NCBI GenBank assembly: GCA_035362715.1
Contig: DAOSDU010000006.1
Location: 29,151-93,150 of the forward strand
DNA: 64,000 nucleotides
Source of the DNA: Methanofastidiosum sp.
GTDB taxonomy: Archaea > Methanobacteriota_B > Thermococci > Methanofastidiosales > Methanofastidiosaceae
Direction of reading: 5' to 3'
Shown: in pieces, positions 39,974-61,176 of the stretch
Numbering within the stretch: position 1 is the stretch's first letter
Layout: every line of letters begins with the position of its first letter
The notes under the pieces: model-generated
The model's database searches: none
Seen by the model: only the letters and a program-made list of their open reading frames with translations
What the model was told of the DNA's origin: nothing
Made by a program: the position numbers and the translations under genes

Positions 39974-40058
39974 GCGGGGGTTGCCGAGCATGGTCTAAGG
40001 CGCCGGACTTAAGATCCGGTGACGCAGGTCTTCGAGGGTTCGAATCCCTTCCCCCGCA
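39974..40058 (+). tRNA. tRNA-Leu (TAA), type II
   Basis: Acceptor GCGGGGG/CCCCCGC, anticodon stem CCGGA/TCCGG with loop CTTAAGA, long variable arm, T loop TTCGAAT. Confidence 0.85.
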
Positions 40059-40214
40059 CTTTTTACTAAAATTAATGCGGTATTGTTTCTCTCCTAATTT
40101 TAATATATTAAATCTAGAAAGCTTAAAATTAAAAATAATTAATTATGTAAATGATAATGTAAAACTTGTGAATAGATGCTAAAGAGTTTTAAACGGGAAT
40201 GAAAGAGGGATTTA

Positions 40215-40346
40215 ATGGGAAAATGTCCAATCTGCGGAAAGGAAACTATCAGGGGCAACGTGCTCTGCACAGATTGCTACATGAATAATAGGGCTCTGGA
40301 TAAAGCCAGTCAGCGAACTCTGGATCATCCAGAAGAGTCAGAATAA
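40215..40346 (+). CDS. Small Zn-ribbon protein (43 aa)
   Basis: MGKCPICGKE...CTDCY four-Cys ribbon; immediately downstream of tRNA-Leu. Confidence 0.35.
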   Translation: MGKCPICGKETIRGNVLCTDCYMNNRALDKASQRTLDHPEESE

Positions 40347-40975
40347 GATTATTGTAGGATTAAATATAATATTTTTTTATAAAAATACAAAAAAAAAGTT
40401 CCTAAATAGTTCACTAAAATAAAACGACATTATATCCCTTTACAGGAAGAATTCCGAATAAAATATAGATTACTCCTGTTATATCAATAGAATGTAATCT
40501 ATAAGCTTATTATACTGAATAAGTGTCTAAAGACAATACAGCCATATAATATCTATTTCATATATTTTAAATATAAATAAATATCTTGTACATAATAAAT
40601 AACCGAAAGAGTTATATAAGCTAAAAAGTATTGTAATATTACACAGGTCGAAACTTCACTAGCCTAATGCTGAAGTAATTCCTTATTAGGTTACTTGGCC
40701 TCTATATAACAGGCGTCAAAACTTGTTATCTATGCTTTGTGTCCATTAAGGCCTACGCTCTGGTCATGGTCAAATCTTTAATCAAACACCATGTTTGAAG
40801 GAATGAAAAGAAAGCTATTTTCTTTTCATTTGTCTCCTTGGATTTGATTGTTTCGTTAAGTCTAAACAAGCCCGAGTCTTCACATAATCTAGATAAGCGA
40901 CAAACTGTGTAATTTTCTTTTTTGATTAATTTATTAAGTTAGAATGAATGTTTTTTCTAAATTAAAAAAATAAAA

Positions 40976-41191
40976 TTAATTATTGTTTAGAATTTTTTTA
41001 GCTGAAACTATTATCGTCATTGCCATGGCCTTGATATAAGGATCTCCTATAATGCACATCTCTTCCAAGAACTCCTTGTTTTCCAAATAAAATCTTACAG
41101 CCCTCATCTTTGACTCAGGAATGTTATTTTCCATGTTTTCTCCTCTAACAAATTTCTCCCATAAAGAAATTCTCTTTTCTCTTCTTTTCAT
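40976..41191 (-). CDS. Hypothetical protein
   Basis: 71-aa ORF in island. Confidence 0.3.
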   Translation of the reverse strand: MKRREKRISLWEKFVRGENMENNIPESKMRAVRFYLENKEFLEEMCIIGDPYIKAMAMTIIVSAKKILNNN

Positions 41192-41453
41192 TGACCTTGA
41201 ACCGGTAGACGTCCTTGACCAGAAACAGGTAGTCCTCCAATCCTTTCATGATCGTCTTGGCTTTATCCGATGATCCTTCATTGCCAAAACACAAAAGCAA
41301 GAATCTGTACCCCTCGGTGTAGCTAATAGCATGCTCAATGGACATGATCATCTCTGAAAGCTCGATGATACTAAATGTGTACAGCTCCTCCCTTGTAAGC
41401 ATGGGCAGTGTATCTTCATGCCCCTTTTCTAAAACATCGATACTTTTTGCCAA
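41145..41453 (-). CDS. Hypothetical protein
   Basis: 102-aa ORF, overlaps downstream gene start. Confidence 0.35.
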   Translation of the reverse strand: MAKSIDVLEKGHEDTLPMLTREELYTFSIIELSEMIMSIEHAISYTEGYRFLLLCFGNEGSSDKAKTIMKGLEDYLFLVKDVYRFKVNEKKRKENFFMGEIC

Positions 41454-41465
41454 AATTTTTCCTCC

Positions 41466-41520
41466 TTACTTACTACTTACTTACTACTATACTACATACT
41501 ACACTACACTACACTACACC
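41466..41520. repeat. Low-complexity tandem repeat (TTAC/TAC then ACTAC units)
   Basis: ttacttactacttacttactactatactacatactacactacactacactacacc read directly. Confidence 0.7.
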
Positions 41521-42003
41521 CGCTTCAGTGCAGATCTTTTCTTTTAGTTCTCCAGTGGAAATACAAAGACCATTTGAGAAGTTGTCCAAGACTCTCTGAT
41601 CGTTTAGGACATTATCAATTCCGGCCTCGGATATCTTCTTCTTGATTATAGGCCATACTGTAAATTCCCAGAGTTTCTGTTTCTCTATTTCAGATAATTG
41701 CTTTTCTTCAGTCTTATTTTTAGGGACAATCTCTTTATCAATCTCTTTTTTTGTTTCTTTTAGATTTTTCTTTGTCAATTCATCAATTTCTGCTTTTAAT
41801 CTTGTTGCTTCCAAAATAGCGCTTTCATATTTGTCTTTAGCCAATTCAAGCTCTGATTTGTTCATTTCTATATACTGTTTTAAGGCCTCAGTTATTGTAT
41901 CTGTAAATCCCTTCGATGAAACAGCGTAAGCCTTTTCCAAAAGATCTTCAGGGAGCCATGCTTGTATGAGCCGTTTTCCGTACCTTAACTGGCTTTTTCC
42001 CAT
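41509..42003 (-). CDS. Ribbon-helix-helix (CopG/Arc/omega-like) DNA-binding protein with C-terminal coiled coil
   Basis: N-terminal KRLIQAWLPEDLLEKAYAVSSKGFTDTITEALKQYIE fits RHH beta-alpha-alpha; iteron array lies directly upstream. Confidence 0.45.
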   Translation of the reverse strand: MGKSQLRYGKRLIQAWLPEDLLEKAYAVSSKGFTDTITEALKQYIEMNKSELELAKDKYESAILEATRLKAEIDELTKKNLKETKKEIDKEIVPKNKTEEKQLSEIEKQKLWEFTVWPIIKKKISEAGIDNVLNDQRVLDNFSNGLCISTGELKEKICTEAGVV

Positions 42004-42031
42004 ACTACACCCCCCTTATTTTCATTTTTTT

Positions 42032-42191
42032 TGTAAGTAAAACTGGCCCTAAAAATGGCACTTTGTAAGTAACCTGTAAGTAAAAAAGGCCAAAAAAGGG
42101 GGGTCTTGTAAGTGTCGCTGTAAGTAATTTTTGTATTGATTTACTTACAAAAGTGCAAAAGTGTAAGTAAATTCGCTCTTTCTGTAAGTAT
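42032..42191. repeat. Iteron array: 8 copies of TGTAAGTA(A) (7 direct, 1 inverted) within 160 bp
   Basis: Copies at 42032, 42064, 42075, 42107, 42119, 42141 (inverted TTACTTACA), 42162, 42183. Confidence 0.85.
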
Positions 42192-42195
42192 GAAA

Positions 42196-42657
42196 TCAAG
42201 GCACCACCCTGCATTTCACGATCTTTTCTATTGGCAGAAGTTCTGAGACCTTGATCACAAAGGTGTCGCAGGAGTAGGTGAAGTTCCCCTGCCTCTCCTT
42301 TTCCCCTTCTCTTTTGAGAACTGCCTTCTTCAGATATTCCTCCCTTGGCAAAGCTCCTGCAATTGTGAATCTTCGCTTTTTCTCATTGTAGAATACAAAG
42401 GCGTAGATATCGTTTTCAAGTGAAGCCTGGGCACTAGAAAGGTCCACGTTATAGTCGCTGCTGATTGGAAAGCACGTCCTCATAGTCTTGACGTCTACCC
42501 TCATGCCCTGGACGGTGACATCCCAGCGCTGCATCCTGTTTCTTGTTAGCCTTGCTTTCAACCCCTTATCCTTGCAGTGCTGCATGAAGGCCATCTCACC
42601 CTTTACTCCTACTAGCCTAGCCTGACGGCTGGGCGGGAAAATTGATGGTACAGACAC
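42196..42657 (-). CDS. Hypothetical protein, possible PD-(D/E)XK nuclease fold
   Basis: GEMAF...WDVTVQGMRVDVKT gives E...D...DxK arrangement reminiscent of Hjc/restriction-endonuclease-like fold; weak. Confidence 0.3.
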   Translation of the reverse strand: MSVPSIFPPSRQARLVGVKGEMAFMQHCKDKGLKARLTRNRMQRWDVTVQGMRVDVKTMRTCFPISSDYNVDLSSAQASLENDIYAFVFYNEKKRRFTIAGALPREEYLKKAVLKREGEKERQGNFTYSCDTFVIKVSELLPIEKIVKCRVVP

Positions 42658-43544
42658 TACGCATCAGCGCCTACAGGTTCTGCCTCAATCTTCATTTCTG
42701 TATACTCTTCTGATGAAACGAGGAACTCTGATTCAGGCCCGGTAGATAGATTGATATAGCCCTTCCTGTTGCGCCCCGTCTCTATGTTGGTCACTGTGAC
42801 TGTTAGCCCTACCAGCGGAGACTTGCTTTCCAAAGTCCTTATGCGCTCTAGCATTGGATTTGCTGGAACAACTTTTCCTGAATCAGTTTTATACATCGAA
42901 GTGTCGTAGCAGTTTAGCCAGATGCTGAATTTACCGTCGGTGAGCTCCACGCCTCTGGACTTAGCCCTATACTTATGCTCCCAAGAATAAGGCCTTTCGG
43001 TACTCAATTTATTGACCCTTGCAGTGAGCCTTTCTATTCGACCGTTTCTGATCTTTTGAGCCAATGACTTCTCCGAAAGATTGTCAAGCTCCTGCCACAA
43101 ATTGCCATCGGAATTTTCCCCATCAGGCTTCCAACCGTAAGACATTGCCGCAAGCCTAATAGCATCCTCTTCTTCGATGCCGTATCTTCCGCCCTTGTAC
43201 TCCTTTTCTATCGCCTTCTTGTACCAATCCGGATCATCCGGATGATGCTTCTTAGCGTAATCTACAAGATACTCCTCAGCATTTACGCTGTCTACAAAGG
43301 ACTGGCTGGGCTTTTTTAGAATAGAATTTTTCTTTTCTAGATCTAGTTTTACTAGAACTAATGCACTTTCTTCTGTCACCCCCTTTTCATCTTTTTTTAG
43401 GTCAACAAGACGGGAGAGCTCGTTAATCGAGATCCCGTGCTTGCTGCATATTTCCTGTTTTATTTCCTCATAGGCCATGTATGATGCACCTTTTAGAAGG
43501 GGCGTAAAGACTTTGACAATATCAGCTATACGCCTCCATAACAA
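42657..43544 (-). CDS. Hypothetical protein (295 aa)
   Basis: Stop overlaps start of downstream gene (coupled); no family recognized. Confidence 0.4.
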   Translation of the reverse strand: MLWRRIADIVKVFTPLLKGASYMAYEEIKQEICSKHGISINELSRLVDLKKDEKGVTEESALVLVKLDLEKKNSILKKPSQSFVDSVNAEEYLVDYAKKHHPDDPDWYKKAIEKEYKGGRYGIEEEDAIRLAAMSYGWKPDGENSDGNLWQELDNLSEKSLAQKIRNGRIERLTARVNKLSTERPYSWEHKYRAKSRGVELTDGKFSIWLNCYDTSMYKTDSGKVVPANPMLERIRTLESKSPLVGLTVTVTNIETGRNRKGYINLSTGPESEFLVSSEEYTEMKIEAEPVGADA

Positions 43545-43722
43545 TTTGGTAACTTATGATTAAAGGCATTTACAAGGCATTTTATGGTATTAAGATTTCA
43601 GTGCAATTATTATTTTGAAGATAATTATCTTTTTTGGAAACAGAACTGAATTAATTTTAATTAGAGCATTTGCAATAAGAAAAGATTGAAAGGGAAATCA
43701 AGAGGGTTAATTTAATTCTTTT

Positions 43723-44010
43723 TCAATCGTACATGAGATCTTTAGTATGATCATATTCAAAATTAGTAGACTTGCAGTTGGGACACCTTGGGGGAGCATC
43801 CATAGTATAGTTTCCTCCACACTCGCATTTTCCAGCATACTCTTCGAATGATCTGTATTTTGAGGGGGCTTCACGTAGTTCATAAAAGTACACGGTTTTT
43901 CCCTTGCCGCATTTGTCGCAGTGCAGGTCATGATTAGTGAATCCACCGCCTGTTTGAATTGAATATCTTGTGCCACAGTCCTTGCATATAGCTTCAGAAA
44001 TGCACCCCAT
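43723..44010 (-). CDS. Zn-ribbon protein with four CxxC pairs
   Basis: CKDCG...CDKCG...CECGG...CPNCK. Confidence 0.45.
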   Translation of the reverse strand: MGCISEAICKDCGTRYSIQTGGGFTNHDLHCDKCGKGKTVYFYELREAPSKYRSFEEYAGKCECGGNYTMDAPPRCPNCKSTNFEYDHTKDLMYD

Positions 44011-44128
44011 GCATAATTTGAAATGTTAATACTATTTATTGTTAACTGAAAAAATATCTTCAATAGGGTTATATAATTGTAAGATAAAAAATTATAAATA
44101 TTAATATAGACAATAAACAGGGATTAAA

Positions 44129-44377
44129 ATGAATGCGATGGTAGAAATTTGTCTTTATTGTAAGCATAGAAATAAAGATTGTGAGTTTGGGGAAAATATA
44201 CCAGATTTAATTTTAGTTGGCAGGTTTAATCATAAAATACCTATTTGGAAGGAAAAAATATTATTTGAATTTGACGATGATATTTCAGATGAGAAAAAAG
44301 AATATATAAATTTTGATTTTGTGGATAAAGAAAGGGCTACCAAAATTTTAAAAAATTTAAAAGGAAAGATTATTTAA
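44129..44377 (+). CDS. Hypothetical small protein with N-terminal CxxC
   Basis: 82-aa ORF, CLYCKHRNKDC. Confidence 0.3.
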   Translation: MNAMVEICLYCKHRNKDCEFGENIPDLILVGRFNHKIPIWKEKILFEFDDDISDEKKEYINFDFVDKERATKILKNLKGKII

Positions 44378-44670
44378 TAGGATAGTAATTACTGAAGCAC
44401 TTTTTTGGAGAACGGATTATTCTTCCATACGTATCATAGCAATTGGCAAATTAAACTAAAGACAATTAAGTATGCAATAAGAAAGAGTGAAAGAAAATTA
44501 GTTGGGATAATACTATTTATTGTTAACTGAAAAATAAAAGGCCCAGGTAAGGGGTATATAGGAGTGTGTGTAGCCATAATCCCGGACCTAATCAATTCTG
44601 GGCTTGGCAATATTAAGGGCTAATCCTAGGGAATTTGTATTTATCATTATAATGACTAAAGATGCTCACC

Positions 44671-45417
44671 CTACATGTTTTCATCGGACCATTTCTCGGT
44701 ATCAAAACTTGAGAATATTGCTGCGTCAAGAACGCATGGTGATATACCGCATGCATTACATATTTGTTGAAATCCTTCAGAAACAAAGTTAAAATAATTC
44801 CTGTCTGCCAATGTTGCAGCCGATAATGCTATTGGAAAACCAAATTCCTTAAGCCACTTTGTAATTCTGCTGTCTATGGGCACTTCATATCTTGTCAATC
44901 CAAGACCTAGAAGCAGATTTCGTGATTGCTTCGGCCCAAAGCCCCTCAAATTATCTATCAAGACATCGACGCATTCAAGTTCTGTTTCCTTTGAAGGCCT
45001 TTTTTTTAAGTCTCCAATAATTCTAAATATCTCTTCCCATCCACCGTTATTAAGCCAGTTATAGTTAAGCGATGCTTCCTCCGAAATTGATTTACCCCGG
45101 CGGATACCCCCAAAATCAGTAATTGTTTTTTCAATGAACCTTTTTAGGTCATGCTGGTGGCTACATATTGAATAATCCAAGAGAAAAGGTTTGGTGCAAA
45201 CGAATTTTGTAATTGGGCTACTTGGGCCAGATCTTTGCTGAGTTGATAGAAGACATGTGATCATTTCCTTCCAAAATATCTCTTTCGTGACTTCAGGGAT
45301 ATTTCCATTAATATTCCTTTTAATTCGATTTAACACTAAAGGATTATCTTTATGCATTTCGTAAAATGCCTTAACTTTTGAAATATCTGAATCTGTGACA
45401 ATCCAATCGATTTTCAT
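44671..45417 (-). CDS. HhH-GPD superfamily DNA glycosylase/AP-lyase-like protein (Ogg/AGOG/EndoIII-like)
   Basis: Helix-hairpin-helix LRGFGPKQSRNLLLGLGL followed about 19 aa later by PIDSRI (Lys...Asp spacing as in bifunctional HhH-GPD glycosylases); 248 aa. Confidence 0.45.
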   Translation of the reverse strand: MKIDWIVTDSDISKVKAFYEMHKDNPLVLNRIKRNINGNIPEVTKEIFWKEMITCLLSTQQRSGPSSPITKFVCTKPFLLDYSICSHQHDLKRFIEKTITDFGGIRRGKSISEEASLNYNWLNNGGWEEIFRIIGDLKKRPSKETELECVDVLIDNLRGFGPKQSRNLLLGLGLTRYEVPIDSRITKWLKEFGFPIALSAATLADRNYFNFVSEGFQQICNACGISPCVLDAAIFSSFDTEKWSDENM

Positions 45418-45425
45418 CTTAACAC

Positions 45426-45845
45426 CTAGTCCATCTCATCCCTTATTTCCTTTAATCTTTTTAATATGTCAAGGACTAATCCATTCTCAATTGAGGCGGC
45501 AATAAAGCCCCCGCCCATAGTAAGCCTATCTCCTGCTAAGATCTTTTTGAATAAAGCCCTAATGTCCAGTATATTAGCTTCTGACAAGGGAATCGCTCTA
45601 TTAAGTAATAAAGATATATGATTCCCATCTCTACGCTCTCCTTTACGGCCTACATAACTGGTGGTAAAATTTTCCTTGTAGAGCGTATGCAGAAAATTGA
45701 TAACTTCTGCTGAATCCTCCACCCAGCAATCCACTACAGTAAAGAATATATTGTCTTTGTTTTCAAAATACGGCATGAACTCTAAGACCTTGTCTATGTT
45801 TTCCTTTGTTATTGGGATTGAGTTTTCTATTAGGTGCATTTTCAC
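45426..45845 (-). CDS. Hypothetical protein (139 aa) in operon between nuclease and glycosylase
   Basis: Tight spacing (8-9 bp) to both neighbours. Confidence 0.4.
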   Translation of the reverse strand: MKMHLIENSIPITKENIDKVLEFMPYFENKDNIFFTVVDCWVEDSAEVINFLHTLYKENFTTSYVGRKGERRDGNHISLLLNRAIPLSEANILDIRALFKKILAGDRLTMGGGFIAASIENGLVLDILKRLKEIRDEMD

Positions 45846-45903
45846 CAGAACATATCTTAACTTTACCTCTATAATGATTTAGGATTTATTAAATAAAGAA
45901 AAT

Positions 45904-46938
45904 TCAGTATTTGTCTTTTATTTTGAAATCCACCACATAGTATTTTAATTCTACCAGGTTATTTATCGCATCCACAGCATACTGAAGTCTTTCATCTGGC
46001 TCGTTTACTATTATTATTCCCCTCACTTTAGAGCCATAATTTTTCTTCACCCAGCCTATATACCTTAATATCTGGCCCACCACTTCATCGTTTTTCCGGC
46101 CTTTCTTGAGCTCAATTACGACTTGATTTCCCCTGTTGTCCTTGCAAAGGAGGTCTATCCTCCCAACTTCTTTTGTATCGTACTCTTTCCTTACGTCAGT
46201 GAATCCTTTCTCAATGGCCGAAGGATTCATTGACAGGAAATCCCTTAAATCATTTTCAATTGAAATTGAGCCATAAGCTTTTAATGCTTCTTCTGGGCCA
46301 CCGTCTTCTTCATCATAACCATACCAAAGAATATCAGACAACAGGTAATAATTTTCTAAGTTCAATAGTTCTTTAGCTGATTGAAAAATAATAAAATCTC
46401 TCAAATACTCTATTGTTCTGTCAAAATACTTATTATCCGCGGAAACATTAAACATACTTAAGGCATCTTCTCTCGCTGCCTCATCTTGTTCGGAACTTAT
46501 ATTCATTGCTTCTTTATTTTGTGCCGTAATAATTGGATATTTGAAGTTGTCAGAAGCAGTTAAAAAATGTGATAATGTGTGGACCCCCATGCCTTTCAAT
46601 CTAAGGAAATTATCTATCCTTTCAGGGAATAATTGTTCATCCCCGTGTATTAAATATCTAAGATGTGAATTGAACTCTTTTATATTGTCTCGGTACAATA
46701 GATTTGACAAATTCCTGTTAGAAACTAGAATCCTCATTTTTTTAAATAGATGAAAGAAAGTATCCGAGTCCATATCTTTTTCATTGATGAATTCTATGTC
46801 ATGCAAAATCTTTTTGCATTCATTTTGCGCTTCATCTTGTATAGGTCTCAAATTTTTGACTTTTTCTGTATTAAGACTATTATTTTTATAAGATTGTAGA
46901 ATTTCTATTTGCTCAGGTGTAAATTCAAATTTAGACAT
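45904..46938 (-). CDS. Protein with C-terminal YhcG/DUF1016-like PD-(D/E)XK nuclease domain and unknown N-terminal domain
   Basis: GRIDLLCKDNRGNQVVIELKKGRKNDEVVGQILRYIGW matches DUF1016 core (IDLL..D..VVIELK.G....D..GQL..Y). Confidence 0.5.
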   Translation of the reverse strand: MSKFEFTPEQIEILQSYKNNSLNTEKVKNLRPIQDEAQNECKKILHDIEFINEKDMDSDTFFHLFKKMRILVSNRNLSNLLYRDNIKEFNSHLRYLIHGDEQLFPERIDNFLRLKGMGVHTLSHFLTASDNFKYPIITAQNKEAMNISSEQDEAAREDALSMFNVSADNKYFDRTIEYLRDFIIFQSAKELLNLENYYLLSDILWYGYDEEDGGPEEALKAYGSISIENDLRDFLSMNPSAIEKGFTDVRKEYDTKEVGRIDLLCKDNRGNQVVIELKKGRKNDEVVGQILRYIGWVKKNYGSKVRGIIIVNEPDERLQYAVDAINNLVELKYYVVDFKIKDKY

Positions 46939-47261
46939 GCATTATAATATAATATTCAATATAAATATTTATTGTCTAGTTAATTAATATGATAATATTT
47001 TCTTTAGTAGAATTAAATAAGTTATAAAGTAATTTACTATTTTCATGGGGGGGCCAAAAATAATTTTTGTACCCATTGAGAAATTATTCTAATTGGCTCC
47101 CACATTAGATTATATGGTACATTTAAATAAGTATAGTTCTCCCGATTTATGGAATCATTTATAGTTAAAATTAAAATAGATTTTCGATATAGAGACATAG
47201 TAGACTAGGATATACTTATATTCATATTACTCCCATCCACTTATTAAGAGAATGATTTAAT

Positions 47262-47792
47262 ATGTCTGATATTTTAGGAAAGCAATGCCCAAGCTGCGGG
47301 ATTAAATTTGTCATGGAACTTGAAAAATGCCCTATATGTAATGTTTATTTAGATCTTATAAGTGATACAAAAGTTTTTGATAGCAGTGGCTTCACTAAAG
47401 ACGGCTTTGACAAGTATGGCTATGATGAAAAAGGCTACGATAAACATGGATTTGATAGAGACGGTTATAACAAAGCAGGATACTCCAAAGCGGGTTTTGA
47501 TAGAAATGGATTCAATAAACAAGGCATCCATAGATACACAGGCAGAAAATTTAACTTTCAAAATATTGATCAAAATGGCTACGATGACAAGGGATTTGAT
47601 AAAGAAGGGTATAACAGAAATGGCTTTGATAGGTTTGGCAGGGATAAAGACGGCTTTGACAAGGACGGGTACGACAAAAAAGGATTTGACAGAAACGGCC
47701 TTCACAGAAACGGGACAAGATATGGATATAACGGCTTTGACAAGGATGGCTATGATAAGGAAGGATACGATAATAAAGGAATTAAAAAATAA
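47262..47792 (+). CDS. Zn-ribbon protein with about 25 tandem 5-residue repeats G-[FY]-[DN]-[KR]-x
   Basis: CPSCG..CPICN then GFDKDGYDKKGFDRNGF... ; other frames of same repeats give low-complexity ORFs. Confidence 0.4.
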   Translation: MSDILGKQCPSCGIKFVMELEKCPICNVYLDLISDTKVFDSSGFTKDGFDKYGYDEKGYDKHGFDRDGYNKAGYSKAGFDRNGFNKQGIHRYTGRKFNFQNIDQNGYDDKGFDKEGYNRNGFDRFGRDKDGFDKDGYDKKGFDRNGLHRNGTRYGYNGFDKDGYDKEGYDNKGIKK

Positions 47793-47809
47793 AATCAAAT
47801 ATATAAAAT

Positions 47810-48424
47810 TTATAATTGAACAATCATTTTATTAGATGATTGCCATAGGTACCAAACAGCAATAGTACTATATGGGCCCCATTTTGAAGTTATACTATAA
47901 ATTTGTTCTTTAGATATATTTTTTATCCCATATGATCTCTCCAAGGCTCTAAGAAATCCTATATCATCCAAGGGTAAAACATCAAGCCTATTCATTGAAA
48001 AAATTAAAAACATCTCGGCTGACCACCTACCCAATCCTTTTATTTTTGTCAAGTATTCAATGATCTCTTGATTCGATAAATTATTAAAAAATTCGTCATC
48101 GACTCTATACGTTAAGAAGTGCATAGACAATCCGAGTATGTACTCAATTTTTCTTTCAGATATTCCAGCTTCTTTGAATCGATCTATTGAAATCTCCAAT
48201 ATGGCCTCTGGGGAGGGATTATTATTAATTACTTCCAAAAACCTTTTGTATATTGTATTTGCAACCCTTATAGATAGTTGCTGATGGATTATTATCCTTA
48301 CCAAAGAACTAAAATAGTTATTATTCTTTGAGAGTAAACATTCCCCTATGTCATCAATTATCTTTGATAAGACTGGATCCCTTGATTTTAAGTGATCAAT
48401 GGATTCTTTATACTCAGTTTTCAT
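47810..48424 (-). CDS. AlkA-like 3-methyladenine DNA glycosylase (HhH-GPD)
   Basis: IKGLGRWSAEMFLIFSMNRLDVLPLDDIGFLRAL matches AlkA HhH-GPD catalytic region. Confidence 0.65.
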   Translation of the reverse strand: MKTEYKESIDHLKSRDPVLSKIIDDIGECLLSKNNNYFSSLVRIIIHQQLSIRVANTIYKRFLEVINNNPSPEAILEISIDRFKEAGISERKIEYILGLSMHFLTYRVDDEFFNNLSNQEIIEYLTKIKGLGRWSAEMFLIFSMNRLDVLPLDDIGFLRALERSYGIKNISKEQIYSITSKWGPYSTIAVWYLWQSSNKMIVQL

Positions 48425-48519
48425 GATTGCCCCTATGAGTAATAAAAAATTAATATGTCTTTCTATTATCAGGATTTTTTGAGTAAACTTCTTAAATAAG
48501 GAATAATTAAATAGTTCGG

Positions 48520-49677
48520 ATGGAAGAATACGAGTATATTTCTCTTAAATTGCTTGAAGCTGCTATTAATCAAGAAATAAATACTTTTCTAGAGGAAGTG
48601 AAAAAATATAATTTTGATGAATTATTGAGATTTGTTTCTAAACAGGAAACGGGAAGAGGCGGATCTAAAGAAGAGGGAGAAAATAAAAACTTCGAGTATA
48701 AGACCCACGAAGTAGTTAGATATTACCAAAAACTTAGACTTGGCAAAGACGTCTCTAAATATTCTAGCGAAGCTGATAGATTAAAATATGAACTTAGATG
48801 GAAAATTGCAAGTGCTCCTTTTTTTTCAAAAGCCACAGAACACCTTGTCTACGATAGCATAACTAAATACTTGCTTAAAAACAATATTGGATATAAACAC
48901 TATTACTCCCCAAATGCATCAGATTTTGCCATAATTATAGAAAAAGAAGATATTCTAAAATTAATAAAACTACTAGATCTTGATATTACTTTGCCAGATT
49001 CAGATTATAATGGCATTGTGATGCATGTCGATGCTAAAAGTGTATCCGCTTTACTTAATCTTAATGATAGGCTTGTAAAGGCCGAAGCTTCAGGTAGGGA
49101 AAAAAGAGAATTAGGTCAATGCACTGCCAACTGGAATCAAATATCCTACATACCTAAAAAGTTGGAAGATGCTTTGAGAAAATATGATGATGAATTCAAA
49201 CATAAAAAACATGAAGTTTTGCCCCAATTTATATCAATCAATAGTTCAAAATATTATACTGTTACTAATTTTGTTAGTTGCCTGTCTTACCTACCCAAAG
49301 GCTCCACTTTTTTTAAAGATGATCTTGATACCCTAGATACCAGTTACTTTTCATTTGTTTTTTGCGTGATTTCAGTGCCAAACGGAATATTAAAAGATCG
49401 ATTCTATGATGAATTCTTTGGAGGGGTCAAAAATGGGTACGATAAGACCCTTGATCAAAAATATCCTTTTGATTCTAGGATATACATTAAAAGTTCAAAA
49501 GAAGAATATTTAGTATTCAAAAATTTAGAGGAAATGCCTAAAAGATTTTTCTATATGCCAGAAACGGAAAATGAATTTCAAGTAATGGTACTCACTAAAG
49601 GAGAAGTTATGACAAAAAAATTTATTTTAAATAAATCAACATCAAATAATTATAAACTAGATAAGTTTATTGGGTGA
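48520..49677 (+). CDS. Hypothetical protein, paralog 1 of three (degenerate PD-(D/E)XK-like core plus shared C-terminal module)
   Basis: About 40% identity to 50492..51550 along most of length; SPNASDFAIIIEKE segment; shared (I/V)(S/N)(I/V)PNG C-module. Confidence 0.5.
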   Translation: MEEYEYISLKLLEAAINQEINTFLEEVKKYNFDELLRFVSKQETGRGGSKEEGENKNFEYKTHEVVRYYQKLRLGKDVSKYSSEADRLKYELRWKIASAPFFSKATEHLVYDSITKYLLKNNIGYKHYYSPNASDFAIIIEKEDILKLIKLLDLDITLPDSDYNGIVMHVDAKSVSALLNLNDRLVKAEASGREKRELGQCTANWNQISYIPKKLEDALRKYDDEFKHKKHEVLPQFISINSSKYYTVTNFVSCLSYLPKGSTFFKDDLDTLDTSYFSFVFCVISVPNGILKDRFYDEFFGGVKNGYDKTLDQKYPFDSRIYIKSSKEEYLVFKNLEEMPKRFFYMPETENEFQVMVLTKGEVMTKKFILNKSTSNNYKLDKFIG

Positions 49678-50446
49678 TTTTATTTTTATATCTGATTTAG
49701 ACTTAGAAAGATTGGAAGAAAAATATTTGAATATTATTTATAATCAATTATATATAAACATAAATCCAGTAATTAAAGGGATTATGTCACGAGACAAAAT
49801 AACAATATATTGGAAAGAGAAATTTGCTAATCAATCAGAACAGAAAATAACTTCAGACATTGCAAAAGGCGCCGAAAGAATTTTTTCACATTATATGGTA
49901 GAAGAATGGGAACCAAATTCTTGCCCTATTGGGTCTGACTTATTCTATAAGACAAATAATGCATATGTGCATATTGAAATTAAAACGGCAAGAGTAAATA
50001 GCAGAACTCAAGATTATAAAGGTTTATGTCCTGTTAGCAAAAACCAGACTAGCTATTGTGCAACTGAATCCTACACAAAAAGAACTATGATTAAAACAAT
50101 TCCAAATTTACCTTATTCTTATTTTGAATATCCTTGTCTAACTTATGCCATACAAACGATATATGATCCAGATAATAATTATTCTACTTTAGCTGTACTT
50201 TTAATTAGTATTCCAAATGGCCAATTATTCAATATTTATGGTAATAATATAGCAAAAGCTGGAAAGTTGAAAAATGAATCTTTTAGATATGTATATTCAA
50301 GGAATCCGTATTTTGAAAAAATAAAAAAATGTACCCCATGTTCACCTCACCGAGTTAAATTCATTTATTTTAACGAAGGATATATTTTAGACAATGAAAG
50401 TCCCATTACAAAAGAATTTATTACTGGTCGCAATGATATACTTTAG
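49670..50446 (+). CDS. Putative PD-(D/E)XK restriction endonuclease-like protein sharing C-terminal module with flanking paralogs
   Basis: CPIGSD(x13)HIEIK: classic PD...ExK; C-terminal ISIPNG module shared with neighbours. Confidence 0.45.
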   Translation: MGDFIFISDLDLERLEEKYLNIIYNQLYININPVIKGIMSRDKITIYWKEKFANQSEQKITSDIAKGAERIFSHYMVEEWEPNSCPIGSDLFYKTNNAYVHIEIKTARVNSRTQDYKGLCPVSKNQTSYCATESYTKRTMIKTIPNLPYSYFEYPCLTYAIQTIYDPDNNYSTLAVLLISIPNGQLFNIYGNNIAKAGKLKNESFRYVYSRNPYFEKIKKCTPCSPHRVKFIYFNEGYILDNESPITKEFITGRNDIL

Positions 50447-50491
50447 TTTTATACCGATAACTCTATATTCTTTTGTCAGTTCGATAAATCG

Positions 50492-51550
50492 GTGTACCAA
50501 ATGGAACAGTACGAATATATCTCATTTAAACTAGTTGAGAAAGTTTTAGGGAATAAATATAATGAGTTCACAAAAAATATCAAAAATATTCATTTTGATG
50601 AAATGTTTCAGTTTCTTTCAAGGCAGGGAAGTGGCAGGGCACGGACCTTATATGATTATGATTTGAGAGATGTTCTTGAATCTTGCATCAATTCTTCATT
50701 GGATCGAGAAAAAGAAAAGGAATTAAGATGGAGACTCGCCTCCTCACCATTATATAAAGTAGCTATCGAAAGATTTGTCAATGAAAATATGACTAAATGG
50801 TTTGTTGAGAATGAAATTGAATATAGTATATACTATTCTCCAAATTCCTCAGATTATGCGGTCGTACTAACTAATAATTCTTATACTAAAATAGCTGAGA
50901 TCTTAGATCTAGACTTTGAGATTAATGAGAACTATGACGGCGGATTATTACTTGTCGATTCTAAGAGTTTGAATGCCTTAGGAAATCTTGGAGATTCTTT
51001 AGTAGAGGACGAAGTAGGGCTATTTGAAGCAAAATGGAATCAAATATCATATGAACCCCCATTGCTAAAAAAAGCAAAAACTGAGCATCCAGATCCTCTA
51101 ATGGCTAAAAAACATAGTGTGTTACCTCAGATTACATTAATAGAAAATAAGAAGTATGTAACTGTTACCTGTTTTGCAGTAGGATTAAATTATTTGGCAT
51201 ATCCTTCCCCTTTTTTCACTGATCCCTTGAATACTCTCAGCAGCAAATACTTTGATATAATCTTATATATAGTAAATGTTCCAAATGGAGTTCAAGGCAA
51301 TAAATTCGACAGATTCTTTTTTAATGGTAAAGGGGGATATGATGAATCAAATCCAAATTACCCTGTTGACTGCAGAATTGGTATCAAGAATAATGGTATA
51401 TATCTAAGGTTTGAGGATATAGAAGGTAACCCTAAAAGATTTTCTCATTTTCCATCAACGCCACGATTTTATAATATTTCATTATTCAAAAATAGAGGGA
51501 TAATAGGAAAAAGAGTAAAAGTTGGAGAGGTCATAAGACCTCTTTGTTAA
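50492..51550 (+). CDS. Hypothetical protein, paralog 2
   Basis: Homologous to 48520..49677 (MEQYEYISFKL..., ELRWRLASSP..., EAKWNQISYEP...). Confidence 0.5.
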   Translation: MYQMEQYEYISFKLVEKVLGNKYNEFTKNIKNIHFDEMFQFLSRQGSGRARTLYDYDLRDVLESCINSSLDREKEKELRWRLASSPLYKVAIERFVNENMTKWFVENEIEYSIYYSPNSSDYAVVLTNNSYTKIAEILDLDFEINENYDGGLLLVDSKSLNALGNLGDSLVEDEVGLFEAKWNQISYEPPLLKKAKTEHPDPLMAKKHSVLPQITLIENKKYVTVTCFAVGLNYLAYPSPFFTDPLNTLSSKYFDIILYIVNVPNGVQGNKFDRFFFNGKGGYDESNPNYPVDCRIGIKNNGIYLRFEDIEGNPKRFSHFPSTPRFYNISLFKNRGIIGKRVKVGEVIRPLC

Positions 51551-51620
51551 TACAATAACACTTAGGACAACCTTTAAATCTTATATATTTTTAATACTGA
51601 TACCCAATAATCAAAAGGTA

Positions 51621-53702
51621 ATGCTTATGCCAGAGGATACAATCTTACATGGAGATGTTTATGCATGTCTAACTTCTCTTGAGGATAATTCAATTGCAGT
51701 TGCTATAACTTCACCACCCTATTGGGCCCAAAGAGATTATGAATTTGAGGGCCAAATTGGTTCAGAAAAGACTTCAGAGGAATATATTGGGAAGCTAGTT
51801 TCAGTTTTTAGCAAACTAAGAGAGAAACTAAGAGATGACGGTATATTTTTCTTAAATGTTGGCGACAAATATTTTAACAAGTATGGAAAGTCGAACTTAC
51901 TTTTAATACCTTATAGACTTGCTTATCACATGCAAAAAGATGGTTGGATAGTTGAAGATATTATTATGTGGTATAAACCAAATCATATGCCCTCATCTGT
52001 GAAGGACAGATTTGCAAATACTTATGAGCCTGTAATAGTTCTATCCAAGAATAAACATAATATCTATAAAAAAGAAAATAATGTTCTTAGTATTCCATTA
52101 CAGCCTTCCAAATGGAAACACACCGCAGTATTCCCAGAGAAACTAGTTGATGAATTATTAAAAAAAATTAATCTAAAAAAGGAGGATATTGTACTAGATC
52201 CTTTCGGAGGTACTGGAACTACTGCTTATGCTGTTAAAAAGTTGAGAAACAACAATCTTAATCCTTTAGAAATATATTCTATAATGATCGAAATGAGTGA
52301 AGAATTTGTCAAGATTATCCAAGAGCGGGTTGATATACAAAAAATTGTTCCAGTAAACCATATAGAATATAAATGGAAATCCCTCACAAATGACTATCCT
52401 TCTTATACTGAAATTAATGAGATAATCAACAATATTTATGGAGAAGTATTCATTGCAAATACTTCAAAAGAATTAATTGCTGCATTTAATGGCATTACAG
52501 GTGACAATTTCAAGAAATACCACCGAAAGGACGCCCTATACTTTTTTGGTGTTAAGAATTGGGATCTAGAAGCCCTGTATTATGCCAACAGGATATATGG
52601 GTATAACTATGTTTTAAGAAATATGATTATTATTTCCAATAACTTCAAATGGTATCCTATTTTTGTATTTGCTAATGATAGCACCATAGTTCCGTATAAA
52701 TTTTATATTGATAGGATAAGAGTTGATCCTTTAATGAAAAATGAATTTGACTGGGATAAAATTAAATTTATTGGAATGAAGGTCAAAAGTAGTTTTTCTA
52801 AAGAAACTAAAGAGGGAACTATTGTTGAAATACTAAAAAATTATGAAGACGGGTTCCCTAAAATAGTATGTGTTCAATGGAATGGAAAAGCTTCTATAGA
52901 ATTTGTGATACACCCAGGGGAAGACGAATTTTTAATGGAAGGTTTGAAATTCTTATGTCCTTTTTGCCATACTACTCTAAAAGAAATATTTAATCCTATT
53001 TCAAAGACAAAATGCCCAAATTGTAAAAAGGAACTATTGAATGGCAAGGACTCTATACCAACGATTATAGAGCCAGAACAAATTGAGATAGAATTAGAAA
53101 ATCTAAAATCTATATATAGCCCCATTGGAAAAATTATTGAAATAAATTCATTTGAGAATAAGAAAAAAACGTCAAGTAAATTTGCAGATGTAAAAAGGGT
53201 TAACTGGGGCGCTTCTCCAGGTGCTAGAAAAATCATGGAAGGCGACTATTTTGCTAAAATGAGATTATATAGGATGGATCAACCAACAATTGCGAAAATA
53301 CTATCGATAATACGAGAGAGTAAAGACTTTAAAATTAAGGATTTATTGGAAGTTTTTCCTGATAATTATCTCCACACAGTAGGCCATTGGTTTAGAACTG
53401 ATTTTGGAGGTTCAGTTCCGAAAAATGAAGATGCAGAGAAACTAGAAGAGGTAATAGGTAATGGAGAAAAAATATGGGAAATTTTAAAACGTACAGCATT
53501 GAAATTTCAAACTGTTAAATCATCAATAAAAGGAAAAAATCCAGGCGATTTTATTTTTGATTTATCAGATGAAGAACTAATTAATTATTTGAGACTATTG
53601 TTTATGACACCAAATGATTATATAAACTCTCTAACAAATAAAGATAATATAAATATTAAAAATCATCAATCTGACTTAGATTCTTTCATGAAAAATGAAT
53701 AG
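51621..53702 (+). CDS. DNA amino-methyltransferase (beta class, N4-cytosine or N6-adenine) with about 450-aa C-terminal extension containing Zn ribbon
   Basis: Motif IV TSPPYW near N-terminus followed by motif I VLDPFGGTGTT (beta-class order); C-terminal CPFC...CPNC. Confidence 0.8.
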   Translation: MLMPEDTILHGDVYACLTSLEDNSIAVAITSPPYWAQRDYEFEGQIGSEKTSEEYIGKLVSVFSKLREKLRDDGIFFLNVGDKYFNKYGKSNLLLIPYRLAYHMQKDGWIVEDIIMWYKPNHMPSSVKDRFANTYEPVIVLSKNKHNIYKKENNVLSIPLQPSKWKHTAVFPEKLVDELLKKINLKKEDIVLDPFGGTGTTAYAVKKLRNNNLNPLEIYSIMIEMSEEFVKIIQERVDIQKIVPVNHIEYKWKSLTNDYPSYTEINEIINNIYGEVFIANTSKELIAAFNGITGDNFKKYHRKDALYFFGVKNWDLEALYYANRIYGYNYVLRNMIIISNNFKWYPIFVFANDSTIVPYKFYIDRIRVDPLMKNEFDWDKIKFIGMKVKSSFSKETKEGTIVEILKNYEDGFPKIVCVQWNGKASIEFVIHPGEDEFLMEGLKFLCPFCHTTLKEIFNPISKTKCPNCKKELLNGKDSIPTIIEPEQIEIELENLKSIYSPIGKIIEINSFENKKKTSSKFADVKRVNWGASPGARKIMEGDYFAKMRLYRMDQPTIAKILSIIRESKDFKIKDLLEVFPDNYLHTVGHWFRTDFGGSVPKNEDAEKLEEVIGNGEKIWEILKRTALKFQTVKSSIKGKNPGDFIFDLSDEELINYLRLLFMTPNDYINSLTNKDNINIKNHQSDLDSFMKNE

Positions 53703-53736
53703 TAATCTTTTTTAAGAGTAACAATTTTTTTTATTT

Positions 53737-53934
53737 ATGTCGCAACGTTTTTGCTACGAGTACATAAAAAACAACGCTTCAAATGAAAAACCTCTAACTG
53801 CAAAGAATATATCAAAAAATTGTCCAGGACTTGGAGAAAGAGCCATTGTAAAATCCTTGAAATTATTAAGAGAAAATAAGGAAGTAAAATATATCTATAA
53901 AAATGGAACTTATTTTTATACTGGCATATATTAG
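53737..53934 (+). CDS. Small hypothetical protein (possible wHTH controller)
   Basis: 65-aa ORF at 3' end of MTase operon; LGERAIVKSLKLLRE helix-like. Confidence 0.25.
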   Translation: MSQRFCYEYIKNNASNEKPLTAKNISKNCPGLGERAIVKSLKLLRENKEVKYIYKNGTYFYTGIY

Positions 53935-53982
53935 TTAATTTTGATAATAATTTTTATAAAGGTAAAATAATAATTAGCTATT

Positions 53983-54025
53983 GTCCAGGGCGCCATTACT
54001 TTCTTTTGGCAGAACAGCCCTGGAC
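53983..54025. other. GC-rich 9-bp hairpin (GTCCAGGGC...GCCCTGGAC, 25-nt loop) in AT-rich intergenic region
   Basis: Inverted repeat read directly; second IR GCCTAGG...CCTAGGC at 54070-54106. Confidence 0.5.
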
Positions 54026-54285
54026 TATTCAACAATTAAATTTATAAATCGAAATTAAGCGGGTAGATTGCCTAGGTGGTCAAATAGTCTGTAATTCAGC
54101 CTAGGCGAAATACTATTTCTAATTATCTAACAAGCTAAATTTAAGGTAGATTCTTCTCTTATTATAATTAATATATCATATTTATGCTATTTTTAGTTAG
54201 TTTTAAATAGTATTTATTTTTAATAGCTCTGATTAAGATTTGGTAATTTGGGGGGTTTATTATAAAAGAACCCGAAGATCTTGCT

Positions 54286-54486
54286 TTGGCTGCAGTTGGG
54301 AGATTGATTAGGGGAGAGGGGATAGAGAGAGTTTCTGAAGATGCATGCATAGCTTTGGCCTTGGCACTTGAAGAATATGCAAGGCAGATAACAAGAAAGG
54401 CAAAAGACTATTCGACTCATGCTAAAAGAAAAACAATAAAACTTGATGATATTGAGCTTGCACTGAAAGATTTTAAGATTAAATAG
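54286..54486 (+). CDS. Archaeal histone (HMf-like histone fold), TTG start
   Basis: AAVGRLIRGEGIERVSEDACIALALALEEYARQITRKAKDYSTHAKRKTIKLDDIELALKDFKIK matches archaeal histone consensus. Confidence 0.8.
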   Translation: MAAVGRLIRGEGIERVSEDACIALALALEEYARQITRKAKDYSTHAKRKTIKLDDIELALKDFKIK

Positions 54487-54653
54487 ACTATATATAAAAA
54501 TAGTAATAAATTACCAGATAACCCTGTCTCTCTTTCTCTTGCACTTCTTACAAACTAAAAAAGTTCCCTCGGTCTTCTGATCATAGCAATAGCTAGCAGT
54601 CCTCTCAATCGGCCTTGCCAAAACTACCCCGCATCTAACACAATAATATTCTC

Positions 54654-55322
54654 TCATGCTTTCATAATCCATGCCACTTCATAATATTTTGGCCTAATAT
54701 CAATTGTAAATCCTGCAACTCTTGTGGTGGTGTCCCCTGCAAAAGTCCAAGACCCTGCTACAGTCTTTGTATGGCTACCGCCAGTTGTCCCAGGATTTGT
54801 TGAAGAAGTCGTTATGCCCTGAAGGAAGCGGTCAATTAGATTAGGCGTCCCGTTGTTTCCATCGCAAAGAAGCCATCCTGATGGGATGCTTGTTAATACC
54901 CCACTCCAAGCCACAATAACTCCAGGCGGTACAAACGAGGGTAATCCCGAAATAACGTTTGTAATTGAAGAGATTGAACTAGCCCCCGCAACAACTGTCG
55001 CAAGTAGCATCGCATCATCCGGCAAAGTTACGGAAGTTGAGATTGTGAGCCAGTTAGCGCCGTTGTCAGAATGCAGATAAACATAGTTTGTGCTATTTGC
55101 TGTTGCTGTCAAAGATTCTGCAGCATCTGAAACAACTTGAAACATGCCCCCGGCCGCATCCTTTACATATGCAGTTCCAGCAGAAACGCTAAGATTAAGG
55201 CCACTGTCAACTGAAACTGTAAATCCTGTCTTTTTGCCTTCAGGAAAGAAATCCCCGAAATACTGCCTGAAATCAGCCGAGGTGATTTTTGCCCCTGCCG
55301 ATACCTTTTTTGTAAATGTCAT
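54654..55322 (-). CDS. Phage tail fiber protein with tail-collar domain
   Basis: GVIVAWSGVLTSIPSGWLLCDGNNGTPNLIDRFLQG...GGSHT matches Phage_tail_collar domain. Confidence 0.75.
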   Translation of the reverse strand: MTFTKKVSAGAKITSADFRQYFGDFFPEGKKTGFTVSVDSGLNLSVSAGTAYVKDAAGGMFQVVSDAAESLTATANSTNYVYLHSDNGANWLTISTSVTLPDDAMLLATVVAGASSISSITNVISGLPSFVPPGVIVAWSGVLTSIPSGWLLCDGNNGTPNLIDRFLQGITTSSTNPGTTGGSHTKTVAGSWTFAGDTTTRVAGFTIDIRPKYYEVAWIMKA

Positions 55323-55332
55323 GAATATACCT

Positions 55333-60713: not shown

Positions 60714-60786
60714 ACCTGAAAAACTGTAGTCGTATCCGGCCAGTCTATCACTTTACCCAATTTTAAAAAAATAAAAAAAAATAGAT

Positions 60787-61176
60787 TTATGCCCTGGATT
60801 CAGTCTCTTTGATAATGATCTGCAGAGAGTCGCCGCCTTCAACAGCCTTTGTCGCTGAGAACTTGTGCCTCATCAGCATGTCCCCTGCAGGATCCCCGTC
60901 ATCGTTGAAAATTCCAACTTCGTTGACGGATAAGCTTCCTGTAAAGGAAAAGGTCTTTGTCCACTTTGCCTTGTAGTCAGCCTCATATTCGCAAGTGGCA
61001 GCCGCCCTTGCTCCGCCGTTAGTTGTAATTTCTGTGACTAATGCTGTTTGGTCGTTTGCCTCTGCTGTTGTTCCAGAGCCTAGTGCGATATATGTGAATG
61101 GGGCAGTAGATACACCATTCAAGAGTTTGGCCTTCATTTCAAGGCCTTTGTTCACGAGTGTTGCCATAAGATTCAA
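60787..61176 (-). CDS. Putative virion structural protein (129 aa)
   Basis: Paralogous to 55333..55836; between TMP and giant protein. Confidence 0.4.
   Translation of the reverse strand: MNLMATLVNKGLEMKAKLLNGVSTAPFTYIALGSGTTAEANDQTALVTEITTNGGARAAATCEYEADYKAKWTKTFSFTGSLSVNEVGIFNDDGDPAGDMLMRHKFSATKAVEGGDSLQIIIKETESRA

Follow-up and report, generated by a model that had tools for sequence, protein, structure and literature searches.

A predicted END-type sensor-nuclease and a candidate defence glycosylase in a variable gene slot of an archaeal provirus-like element

Glycosylase-fold genes at the locus

The sequence analysed here, referred to below as the window, is a 64,000 nucleotide (nt) stretch of DNA from Methanofastidiosum sp. 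(assembly GCA_035362715.1, contig DAOSDU010000006.1, positions 29,151 to 93,150 of the forward strand), within which several genes with DNA glycosylase and nuclease folds lie in a provirus-like element. Four minus-strand open reading frames (ORFs) are of interest: one for a nuclease of 344 amino acids (aa) at 45904..46938, one for a 139 aa protein at 45426..45845, one for a 248 aa DNA glycosylase at 44671..45417 and one for a 204 aa protein at 47810..48424. An ORF check found all four where a sequence-only reading of the window had placed them, and because all have strongly conserved homologues they can be taken as real genes.

The C-terminal domain of the 344 aa protein (residues 223-344; 45904..46272) is a NucS_C-type PD-(D/E)XK nuclease. 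Pfam NucS_C (PF01939) matched residues ~227-311 with an E value of 6e-20 and 71.9 bits (cut-off 24), a profile search of PDB sequences matched the domain to Pyrococcus NucS (2vld; E value 3e-11), and five residues that align with that protein (D262, E276, K278, Q289 and Y293) are invariant in 34 sequences. The sequence-only reading had described a YhcG/DUF1016-like nuclease from the motifs GRIDLL, VVIELK and GQILRY; the motifs are present, but they make up the NucS catalytic set, and YhcG_C (PF06250) stays below threshold at 18.3 bits (cut-off 32.5). What that reading overlooked, while flagging the region for checking, is the nature of the N-terminal domain (residues 1-212; 46303..46938), which by structural match appears to be an inactivated Ogg2-like, helix-hairpin-helix (HhH)-type glycosylase fold. 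Its motif falls, in a local alignment, on the Ogg2 helix-hairpin-helix KGLGMKEASHFL. Where Ogg2 has its catalytic Lys, 31 of the 34 sequences have Gln and the window protein has His; the Asp position, 18 residues after the Lys, is taken by Thr (28 sequences), Ser (5) or Gly (1), with no Asp at 135-141. It is because both catalytic residues are replaced that we call the domain inactivated, and a dead Ogg2-like fold joined to a nuclease would make the 344 aa protein a self-contained sensor-nuclease.

The family of the 344 aa protein comprises 974 clusters, is conserved over its full length of ~345 aa, and has members in Nitrosopumilaceae, Omnitrophota, Acidobacteriota, Bathyarchaeota and Helarchaeota. 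Its homologues stand alone in the two annotated contexts, one beside Mrr and a Type I restriction-modification (R-M) system and the other among housekeeping genes. A scan of 2.9 million viral contigs gave one partial match to the family, a count which, like those of all the genome and viral scans reported here, is a lower bound because the scans rely on short invariant peptide patterns. A recent common origin of the N-terminal domain and the neighbouring 248 aa glycosylase was considered and rejected, as hhalign detected no similarity between them (probability 0.1%).

The 248 aa protein is predicted to be a stand-alone glycosylase/apurinic-apyrimidinic (AP) lyase and is a candidate defence glycosylase. 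All of its top structural matches are HhH-superfamily enzymes, and it has the Ogg2 fold with a catalytic Lys and Asp in the HhH-GPD motif. The active-site segment (GFGPKQSRN...P-x-D-S-R-I; 44872..44931) contains Lys163 (codon 44929-44931) and Asp182 (codon 44872-44874), and in a profile search this pair falls on its catalytic counterparts in Ogg2 chain 9o00, Lys on Lys and Asp on Asp. The earlier description of a bifunctional Ogg/AGOG-like HhH-GPD enzyme is therefore upheld at the level of fold and active site, but not at that of sequence family: the protein scores 18.8 bits against a threshold of 27 for the Ogg-HhH Pfam model PF22175 and 27.3 bits against 183 for the NCBIfam N-glycosylase/DNA lyase model PRK01229, and a profile search of PDB sequences reached Ogg2 only marginally (E value 0.02). 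Judging from the intact residues, it is an apparently active Ogg2-fold glycosylase/AP lyase.

A database search with the 248 aa protein returned 1679 homologous clusters, whose source organisms include Smithella, Brocadiales, Thermodesulfobacteriota and Parcubacteria. Nearly all have a length of 247-250 aa and share 55-60% identity with the archaeal query. When 26 diverse members are aligned, 66 columns are invariant, among them the motifs TTQQRSGP, GFGPKQSRN...LGLT..E.P.DSRI (with Lys163 and Asp182) and, at the C terminus, FSSFD..W. When one genome per species was scanned, relatives were found in 172 of 185,579 species (~0.1%), scattered over Planctomycetota, Nitrospirota, Desulfobacterota, Bacteroidota, Alpha- and Gammaproteobacteria, Patescibacteria and several archaeal phyla. 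The scan of the 2.9 million viral contigs found none, and a comparison with predicted viral structures (BFVD) gave weak EndoIII-like matches and no strong one. The combination of rarity, near-uniform length and 55-60% identity across domains implies horizontal spread.

The 139 aa protein, described as being of unknown function in the sequence-only reading, belongs to Pfam DUF6508 (PF20118; E value 2e-10, 40.9 bits against a gathering threshold of 23.6); it is 137 aa long if started at the ATG at 45839. This is a rare family, for which 1.8 billion proteins gave 25 representative clusters, and no paper mentioning it was found in the literature searched. Two rare DUF6508 fusions were seen, one of 549 aa (P0296) with a 416 aa N-terminal region that has no Pfam or PDB match, and one of 194 aa (P0305) in which DUF6508 is followed by a short ADP-ribosylglycohydrolase-like segment. 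The 139, 204 and 248 aa proteins had no match in PHROGs or PADLOC.

The 204 aa protein matched PF00730 (E value 4e-17), PDB 2h56 (6e-35) and Schizosaccharomyces pombe Mag1 (2e-29). Trp134 stands at the HhH position where bifunctional enzymes carry Lys, and Asp153/154 is present, so that the sequence predicts a standard, monofunctional 3-methyladenine DNA glycosylase of the Mag/AlkA type. In calling it a divergent AlkA-like glycosylase the sequence-only reading was right about the AlkA/Mag likeness; the gene is, however, on the same strand as the other three and diverges only from the R-M-like cluster that begins at 48520. It is missing from the same region of a sister strain (L097; related loci are given L numbers here) and is cargo of the variable region in the window strain. 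We consider ordinary repair and defence about equally probable as its role.

A variable slot beside conserved backbone genes

The nuclease, DUF6508 and glycosylase genes had been described as separated by only 8-9 bp and combined in one operon. The short distance holds for DUF6508 and the glycosylase, whose 8 bp spacer (45418..45425) carries the ribosome-binding site AGGTG, and these two genes are probably co-transcribed. Between the nuclease and DUF6508, by contrast, there are 58 bp (64 bp to the ATG used by NCBI), and this AT-rich spacer (45846..45903), which contains a T-run and a TATA-like TTTATTTAATAAA, is probably a transcription-unit boundary.

Comparison with other loci rules out a conserved three-gene operon. 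At the same locus the sister strain L097 has the same two flanks and a glycosylase that is 89% identical. Its R-M pair is another one, and it lacks the nuclease, the AlkA-like gene and DUF6508, of which a 3' remnant of ~30 nt is left before the glycosylase. Locus L007 combines DUF6508 with the glycosylase across the same 8 bp junction (34% and 80% identical, respectively, to the window proteins), and this junction recurs in L007-L009. When 82 non-redundant glycosylase loci were searched with hidden Markov models (HMMs), DUF6508 was found in close Methanofastidiosum relatives only and the N-terminal domain of the nuclease in none. The nuclease family led to 80 metagenomic loci, none of which has the glycosylase or DUF6508; the complete two-domain protein is encoded in 41. 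The slot thus most probably holds independent cassettes, and a conserved three-gene module is not supported. Two 488 aa proteins encoded upstream of glycosylase homologues (L001 and L003) were considered as fusions of the nuclease and DUF6508 (344 + 139 aa) and turned out to be unrelated to each other and to the window proteins.

DUF6508 marks the border of the slot; it is not a partner of the glycosylase. Its relatives, with identities of 55-83%, come from Methanofastidiosum-type contigs and from three viral contigs of IMG/VR. There they adjoin the backbone genes known from the window, as homologues of 42196-43544 and 43723-44010, and the slot upstream of them is filled differently in every relative examined. 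It holds a PDDEXK_4 nuclease in L090, DUF4268 with a Type I R-M system in L093, PDDEXK_4, Mrr and a Q_salvage protein in L094, DISARM in L007, a Type III R-M system in L181, and a UvrD-PD-(D/E)XK helicase-nuclease, a methyltransferase and a Res subunit in L182. In the window it holds the END-type nuclease, a repeat protein with a zinc ribbon, the AlkA-like gene and an R-M cluster resembling Type II. DUF6508 is a backbone gene of an element family, bordering a defence hotspot. As an obligatory partner of the glycosylase it was rejected, since it occurs without a glycosylase in five related elements. The sequence-only reading had placed these genes in a mobile accessory island, and a mobile, variable region was borne out by the restriction or defence genes found there in every relative examined.

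The slot is part of a low-G+C accessory region (40060..54650) that reaches from a tRNA-Leu gene (39974-40059) to a module of tail genes and is delimited by G+C content, the tRNA, backbone genes and PHROG matches. Its G+C fraction is 0.331, compared with 0.362 in the left and 0.427 in the right flank. The backbone genes at 40976-43544 are common to L090, L097 and the IMG/VR contigs L181-L183, and tail-fibre and tail-collar PHROGs are matched at 54654-61176. Because the right flank (54654-63150) encodes tail fibre-, tail collar- and tape measure-like proteins, the 40-64 kb stretch looks like a tailed provirus or a remnant of one. No attachment (att) repeat of the tRNA-Leu was found within the window and no integrase gene was seen there; the relative L090 has an integrase gene beside the same backbone genes.

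In the tail-gene module, which is on the minus strand and has a G+C fraction of 0.43 against 0.33 in the neighbouring island, the tail-fibre and tail-collar PHROG matches are to proteins of 222, 167 and 129 aa. The module also encodes a 620 aa protein with weak resemblance to a tape-measure protein and a 1633 aa protein with internal repeats of a 180 nt period. The R-M-like cluster on the plus strand (48520-53702) consists of a 385 aa and a 352 aa protein without assigned function, paralogues that are 38% identical and bracket a 258 aa protein with a weak Type II restriction-enzyme match, followed at the end by a 693 aa N6/N4 methyltransferase (PADLOC MTase_II, E value 6e-225). This cluster is not related to the 344 aa nuclease, whose gene is 1.6 kb away. 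Between the two, on the plus strand at 47262-47792, a 176 aa protein is encoded that has an N-terminal zinc ribbon and ~11 copies of a 15 nt (5 aa) repeat, G[FY]D[KR]x; L094 and L097 both have homologues 75-86% identical to it in the same variable slot. A perfect 27 nt direct repeat (44027-44053 and 44508-44534), immediately downstream of the glycosylase gene, flanks a 481 bp segment with an 82 aa ORF, and since L007 has one copy of the repeat and no insert, this suggests a small cassette insertion. The ~900 bp beside the tRNA-Leu (40060-40975) contain no ORF of 60 aa or more, save for a short zinc-ribbon ORF near 40216-40345. Elsewhere in the window, at 6942-7086 on the plus strand, the full Rfam tRNA model was matched over 145 nt beside a tRNA-Cys, which indicates an intron-containing tRNA that ARAGORN did not call. 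Such a tRNA fits an archaeal source, and NCBI assigns proteins identical to those of the window to Methanofastidiosum.

A proposed defence role and the alternatives

That proteins of the glycosylase fold can serve in defence became known only in 2024-2025, with nearly all examples coming from bacteria. Two kinds of protein are direct precedents for the present case. In END nucleases an inactive HhH-superfamily (Ogg/EndoIII-like) glycosylase serves as a sensor fused to a nuclease (Yee et al. 2025 preprint, PMC12191111), and the Dag glycosylases (Dag1-Dag17) are single-gene, HhH-fold proteins with a Lys/Asp pair and a stacking Trp that defend against phages with 7-deazaguanine DNA (Getz et al. 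2025 preprint, 10.1101/2025.10.29.685425). In the light of these precedents, the recruitment of glycosylase-fold proteins for defence, as proposed in the sequence-only reading, is the best reading of the locus. That reading had named a housekeeping phylogeny together with a dead nuclease as evidence that would speak to the contrary, and neither the 248 aa nor the 344 aa protein gave such a picture.

The gene neighbourhoods of the glycosylase family point the same way. Clustering of the neighbours at the 82 loci revealed no conserved partner gene; the largest clusters (transposases, ScoMcrA-like proteins, DUF2779 nucleases, methyltransferases and integrases) are each present at 3-5 loci. Among the tight same-strand neighbours (n = 39, annotated with Pfam and PADLOC) there are genes of defence or mobile type, namely DUF2779 (3), Nmad2 (2), DUF6946 (2), PDC-S11 (3), ThsB-TIR, RmuC, HNH and AbiEii-like, together with genes of housekeeping type (urocanase, 2-oxoacid dehydrogenase and others). 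Defence genes are found in seven of the eight Pfam-annotated contexts, the window included, which is the pattern reported for the Dag glycosylases. The remaining six of these are Mrr/ScoMcrA beside conjugation genes in a conjugative element, REase-ARP/ERCC4/HicA/DUF2779, DISARM (L007), an R-M pair (L097), a Type I R-M system, and a PvuRts1I-like SRA protein with VapBC (L191). In the last of these (7847-8716) the glycosylase homologue lies directly upstream of a protein with a PvuRts1I-like N-terminal domain and an SRA domain, and the VapBC pair is nearby. Proteins of this composition are a type of modification-dependent restriction enzyme. At another locus (L014), Nmad2 (nucleotide modification associated domain 2; 8869-9459) and then a DUF7669-NucS_C nuclease (9484-10215) follow directly downstream of the glycosylase homologue; nothing usable on Nmad2 was found in the literature searched.

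Taking these data together, we assign a probability of about 65% to the reading that the region is a hypervariable defence-gene slot of a provirus-like element, filled with independent cassettes that attack modified foreign DNA. What the analysis established are the folds, the state of the catalytic residues, the distributions of the families and their gene contexts; the substrates and the transcription units are inferred, as is the defence role, which is argued from context and analogy. The 344 aa protein would act as a modification-dependent restriction enzyme of END type contained in one polypeptide. The N-terminal domain would flip a non-canonical base into the dead Ogg2 pocket and, since the fold is kept and the catalytic Lys and Asp are lost, would bind the base and not excise it, upon which the NucS-type domain (D262/E276/K278) would cut the DNA; by analogy, the target may be a modified guanine such as a 7-deazaguanine derivative. 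The 248 aa enzyme would work as a single gene, using Lys163 as the Schiff-base nucleophile with Asp182 to excise a non-canonical base of invading DNA and to nick the strand, and would block replication as the Dags do. DUF6508 would be the first gene of the backbone operon of the element, behind which the glycosylase was inserted, probably using the DUF6508 promoter, and this promoter is probably all that DUF6508 contributes. The 204 aa protein would be alkylpurine glycosylase cargo, in repair or in defence.

The pocket of OGG enzymes such as Ogg2 recognises the N7/C8 edge of guanine. Since the pocket reads this edge, since END^Mag and the Dags act on 7-deazaguanines, and since there are archaeal viruses with DNA of this kind, modified purines are the most plausible targets of the 344 and the 248 aa protein alike. 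Viruses of archaea with 7-deazaguanine DNA have been described (PMC6884629), and if 7-deazaguanines are indeed the substrates, the locus would link the DNA modification of archaeal viruses to a matching counter-measure of host or provirus.

Some observations weigh against the reading of independent defence cassettes. The Ogg2 match of the N-terminal domain of the nuclease is structural only, and no sequence profile detects Ogg2 in it. Certain glycosylase homologues lie tightly behind the urocanase and 2-oxoacid dehydrogenase genes mentioned above, and the eighth annotated context (L187) is largely housekeeping. Identities of 55-60% across domains are unusually high for a defence gene. Finally, a NucS_C-type nuclease is found at most two genes from the glycosylase in 5 of 83 loci, a frequency far above naive expectation, which hints at some functional link between the two, although it may reflect shared residence in defence islands. 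A further proposal builds on this proximity. The ~249 aa family would consist of hitherto uncharacterised antiviral glycosylases of bacteria and archaea that in some lineages work with NucS-type nucleases in a two-step base-excision restriction, the examples being the PDC-S11 pairs of three proteobacteria and, in the window, the END-type nuclease two genes from the glycosylase, and the active and the inactivated Ogg2-like proteins of the window would attack the same modified-guanine viral DNA in two ways. We put this forward tentatively, as a rather improbable extension of the defence reading.

Repair without any role in defence is an alternative that we consider unlikely, except for the 204 aa protein, where it is about even. 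Here the 248 aa protein would be an accessory 8-oxoguanine glycosylase and the 204 aa protein a 3-methyladenine glycosylase, both serving host or element DNA. The Ogg2 fold with the same catalytic Lys and Asp, the name 'thermostable 8-oxoguanine DNA glycosylase' given to members of the 248 aa family in some sources, the close match of the 204 aa protein to characterised Mag/AlkA enzymes, and the homologues that sit among housekeeping genes all agree with it. However, a family present in ~0.1% of species genomes, with its near-identical length, cross-domain identity and scores below the Ogg thresholds, is not what ordinary repair would lead one to expect, nor are the defence genes in seven of eight contexts and a position in a slot whose restriction systems change from strain to strain.

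A system of three genes cooperating in base-excision restriction seems doubtful as well, and distinctly unlikely on the evidence of the related loci. The glycosylase would make abasic sites or nicks, the nuclease would convert them to double-strand breaks, and DUF6508 would act as adaptor or regulator. The genes are adjacent on one strand, DUF6508 and the glycosylase being 8 bp apart with a junction that recurs in L007-L009, and nucleases do occur next to the glycosylase elsewhere. In three genomes of proteobacteria (L031, 6966-8000, a gammaproteobacterial metagenome-assembled genome; L050, 246-1370, Rhodovulum imhoffii; L064, 4935-6203, Tropicimonas isoalkanivorans) the PADLOC candidate defence nuclease PDC-S11, with an N-terminal NucS-like domain, lies 0-2 bp upstream of a glycosylase homologue and possibly forms a two-gene system with it, another nuclease is found two genes downstream in L014, and DUF2779 nucleases are recurrent neighbours. 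A helper gene also has a precedent in BapA, the neighbour of the Brig3 glycosylase, which can widen its target range (PMC11078745, PMC13160076). Against this, L097 keeps only the glycosylase, none of the 80 nuclease loci has a glycosylase or DUF6508, and among the 82 glycosylase loci DUF6508 is confined to close relatives and the N-terminal domain of the nuclease is absent. DUF6508 also does without a glycosylase in five related elements, the 58 bp spacer with its T-run and TATA-like element separates it from the nuclease, and the nuclease needs no partner because it has a sensor domain of its own. The PDC-S11 proteins, for their part, are a different family from the 344 aa nuclease and have the catalytic domain alone in common with it. 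DUF6508 was also considered as an analogue of BapA and rejected: BapA is >250 aa long and modelled with two beta-barrels, compared with the 139 aa of DUF6508.

Functions serving the virus, such as counter-defence or the processing of its own or host modified DNA (removing host modifications, or degrading host DNA in lytic growth), might be expected from a region between the tail and backbone genes of a virus-like element and from DUF6508 on IMG/VR viral contigs, but are very improbable given that the 2.9 million viral contigs yielded no glycosylase family and one partial nuclease match, that viral proteins gave no strong structural match, that most homologues are in bacterial chromosomes beside defence genes, and that a scan of ORFs in the window's 40-64 kb part brought up no genes for base modification.

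Comparison with known systems

For the defence reading the closest relative of the 344 aa protein in architecture is END^Mag (MDV2503288.1), in which an Ogg-like sensor is joined to a 'NucS'-like PD-DExK nuclease and which restricted modified-guanine phages; the best templates for its sensor were the Sso, Mja and Tm Ogg proteins (PMC12191111), the same Ogg2 group that is matched by the N-terminal domain of the 344 aa protein. The likeness, which is drawn from the published description of END^Mag, extends to the features that define END nucleases: the 344 aa protein appears to have an HhH-superfamily sensor fold that has lost its catalytic residues and is joined to a nuclease whose active site is intact. 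END nucleases are single genes without a fixed partner in defence islands. The founding END^PaCF1 differs in that its PLD nuclease is N-terminal and its sensor C-terminal, whereas the 344 aa protein has the sensor first and a PD-(D/E)XK nuclease after it. Unlike END^Mag, the 344 aa gene lies in an archaeal provirus-like element and is known from its sequence alone, and MDV2503288.1 was not among the ten NCBI-sourced homologue clusters of the 344 aa family that were looked up. With NucS/EndoMS (2vld, 5gke), which only its residues 227-309 match, the 344 aa protein has the C-terminal catalytic domain and the D-E-K-Q-Y residues in common, and it differs in that the N-terminal DNA-binding and dimerisation domain is swapped for the Ogg2-like domain. 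Because of this replacement the public annotation 'endonuclease NucS' overstates the relationship and is corrected here; the protein is not NucS.

The 248 aa family resembles the Dags, with which it was compared by description, in being patchy, horizontally spread and located in AT-rich mobile or defence regions. Dags are found in Vibrio integrons, Dag1 appears to be bifunctional (10.1101/2025.10.29.685425), and some Dags are near Ogg/AGOG in fold space. The invariant D239...W243 of the 248 aa family recalls D184/W188 of Dag1 as a sequence pattern. Conservation within the family is far stronger than among the Dags, its range takes in archaea and many phyla of bacteria, and none of its host genera appears by name among the Dag locus tags listed. 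Compared with Ogg2 proteins (Tm1821, 3n0u; MjaOgg, 3fhf; 9o00), to which the 248 aa protein is only 16% identical and whose family models it does not reach, the family has ~40 extra residues, the invariant TTQQRSGP and FSSFD..W tail of its own, and an accessory, patchy distribution. The sequence-only reading had pointed to Brig1-type glycosylases. Brig1 and Brig3 belong to the uracil-DNA-glycosylase superfamily and excise phage-specific modified cytosines (PMC11078745, PMC13160076); the concept of excising a phage-specific modified base is the same, but Brig1 is the wrong analogue because its fold is that of uracil-DNA glycosylases, whereas the window proteins are members of the HhH superfamily.

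Both principles, the END-type sensor-nuclease and the defence glycosylase, have thus already been published as 2025 preprints. What is new in the window is the archaeal and proviral setting, the co-location of an apparently active and an inactivated Ogg2-fold protein, DUF6508 as the border of a hotspot, and a large, uniform glycosylase family (~1,700 clusters, ~249 aa, Lys and Asp intact) whose members are candidates for tests with modified-base phages. Defence hotspots of prophages and satellites seem to be built in a comparable way, with a fixed slot in a family of integrated elements that contains a different defence system in each relative, here Type I, II and III R-M, DISARM, Mrr and nucleases. 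Those hotspots are familiar from bacterial prophages, and the host in the present case is a methanogen-related archaeon. The locus would accordingly extend both the END-type sensor-nuclease and the candidate defence glycosylase to an archaeon, within a provirus-like element that swaps restriction systems between strains.

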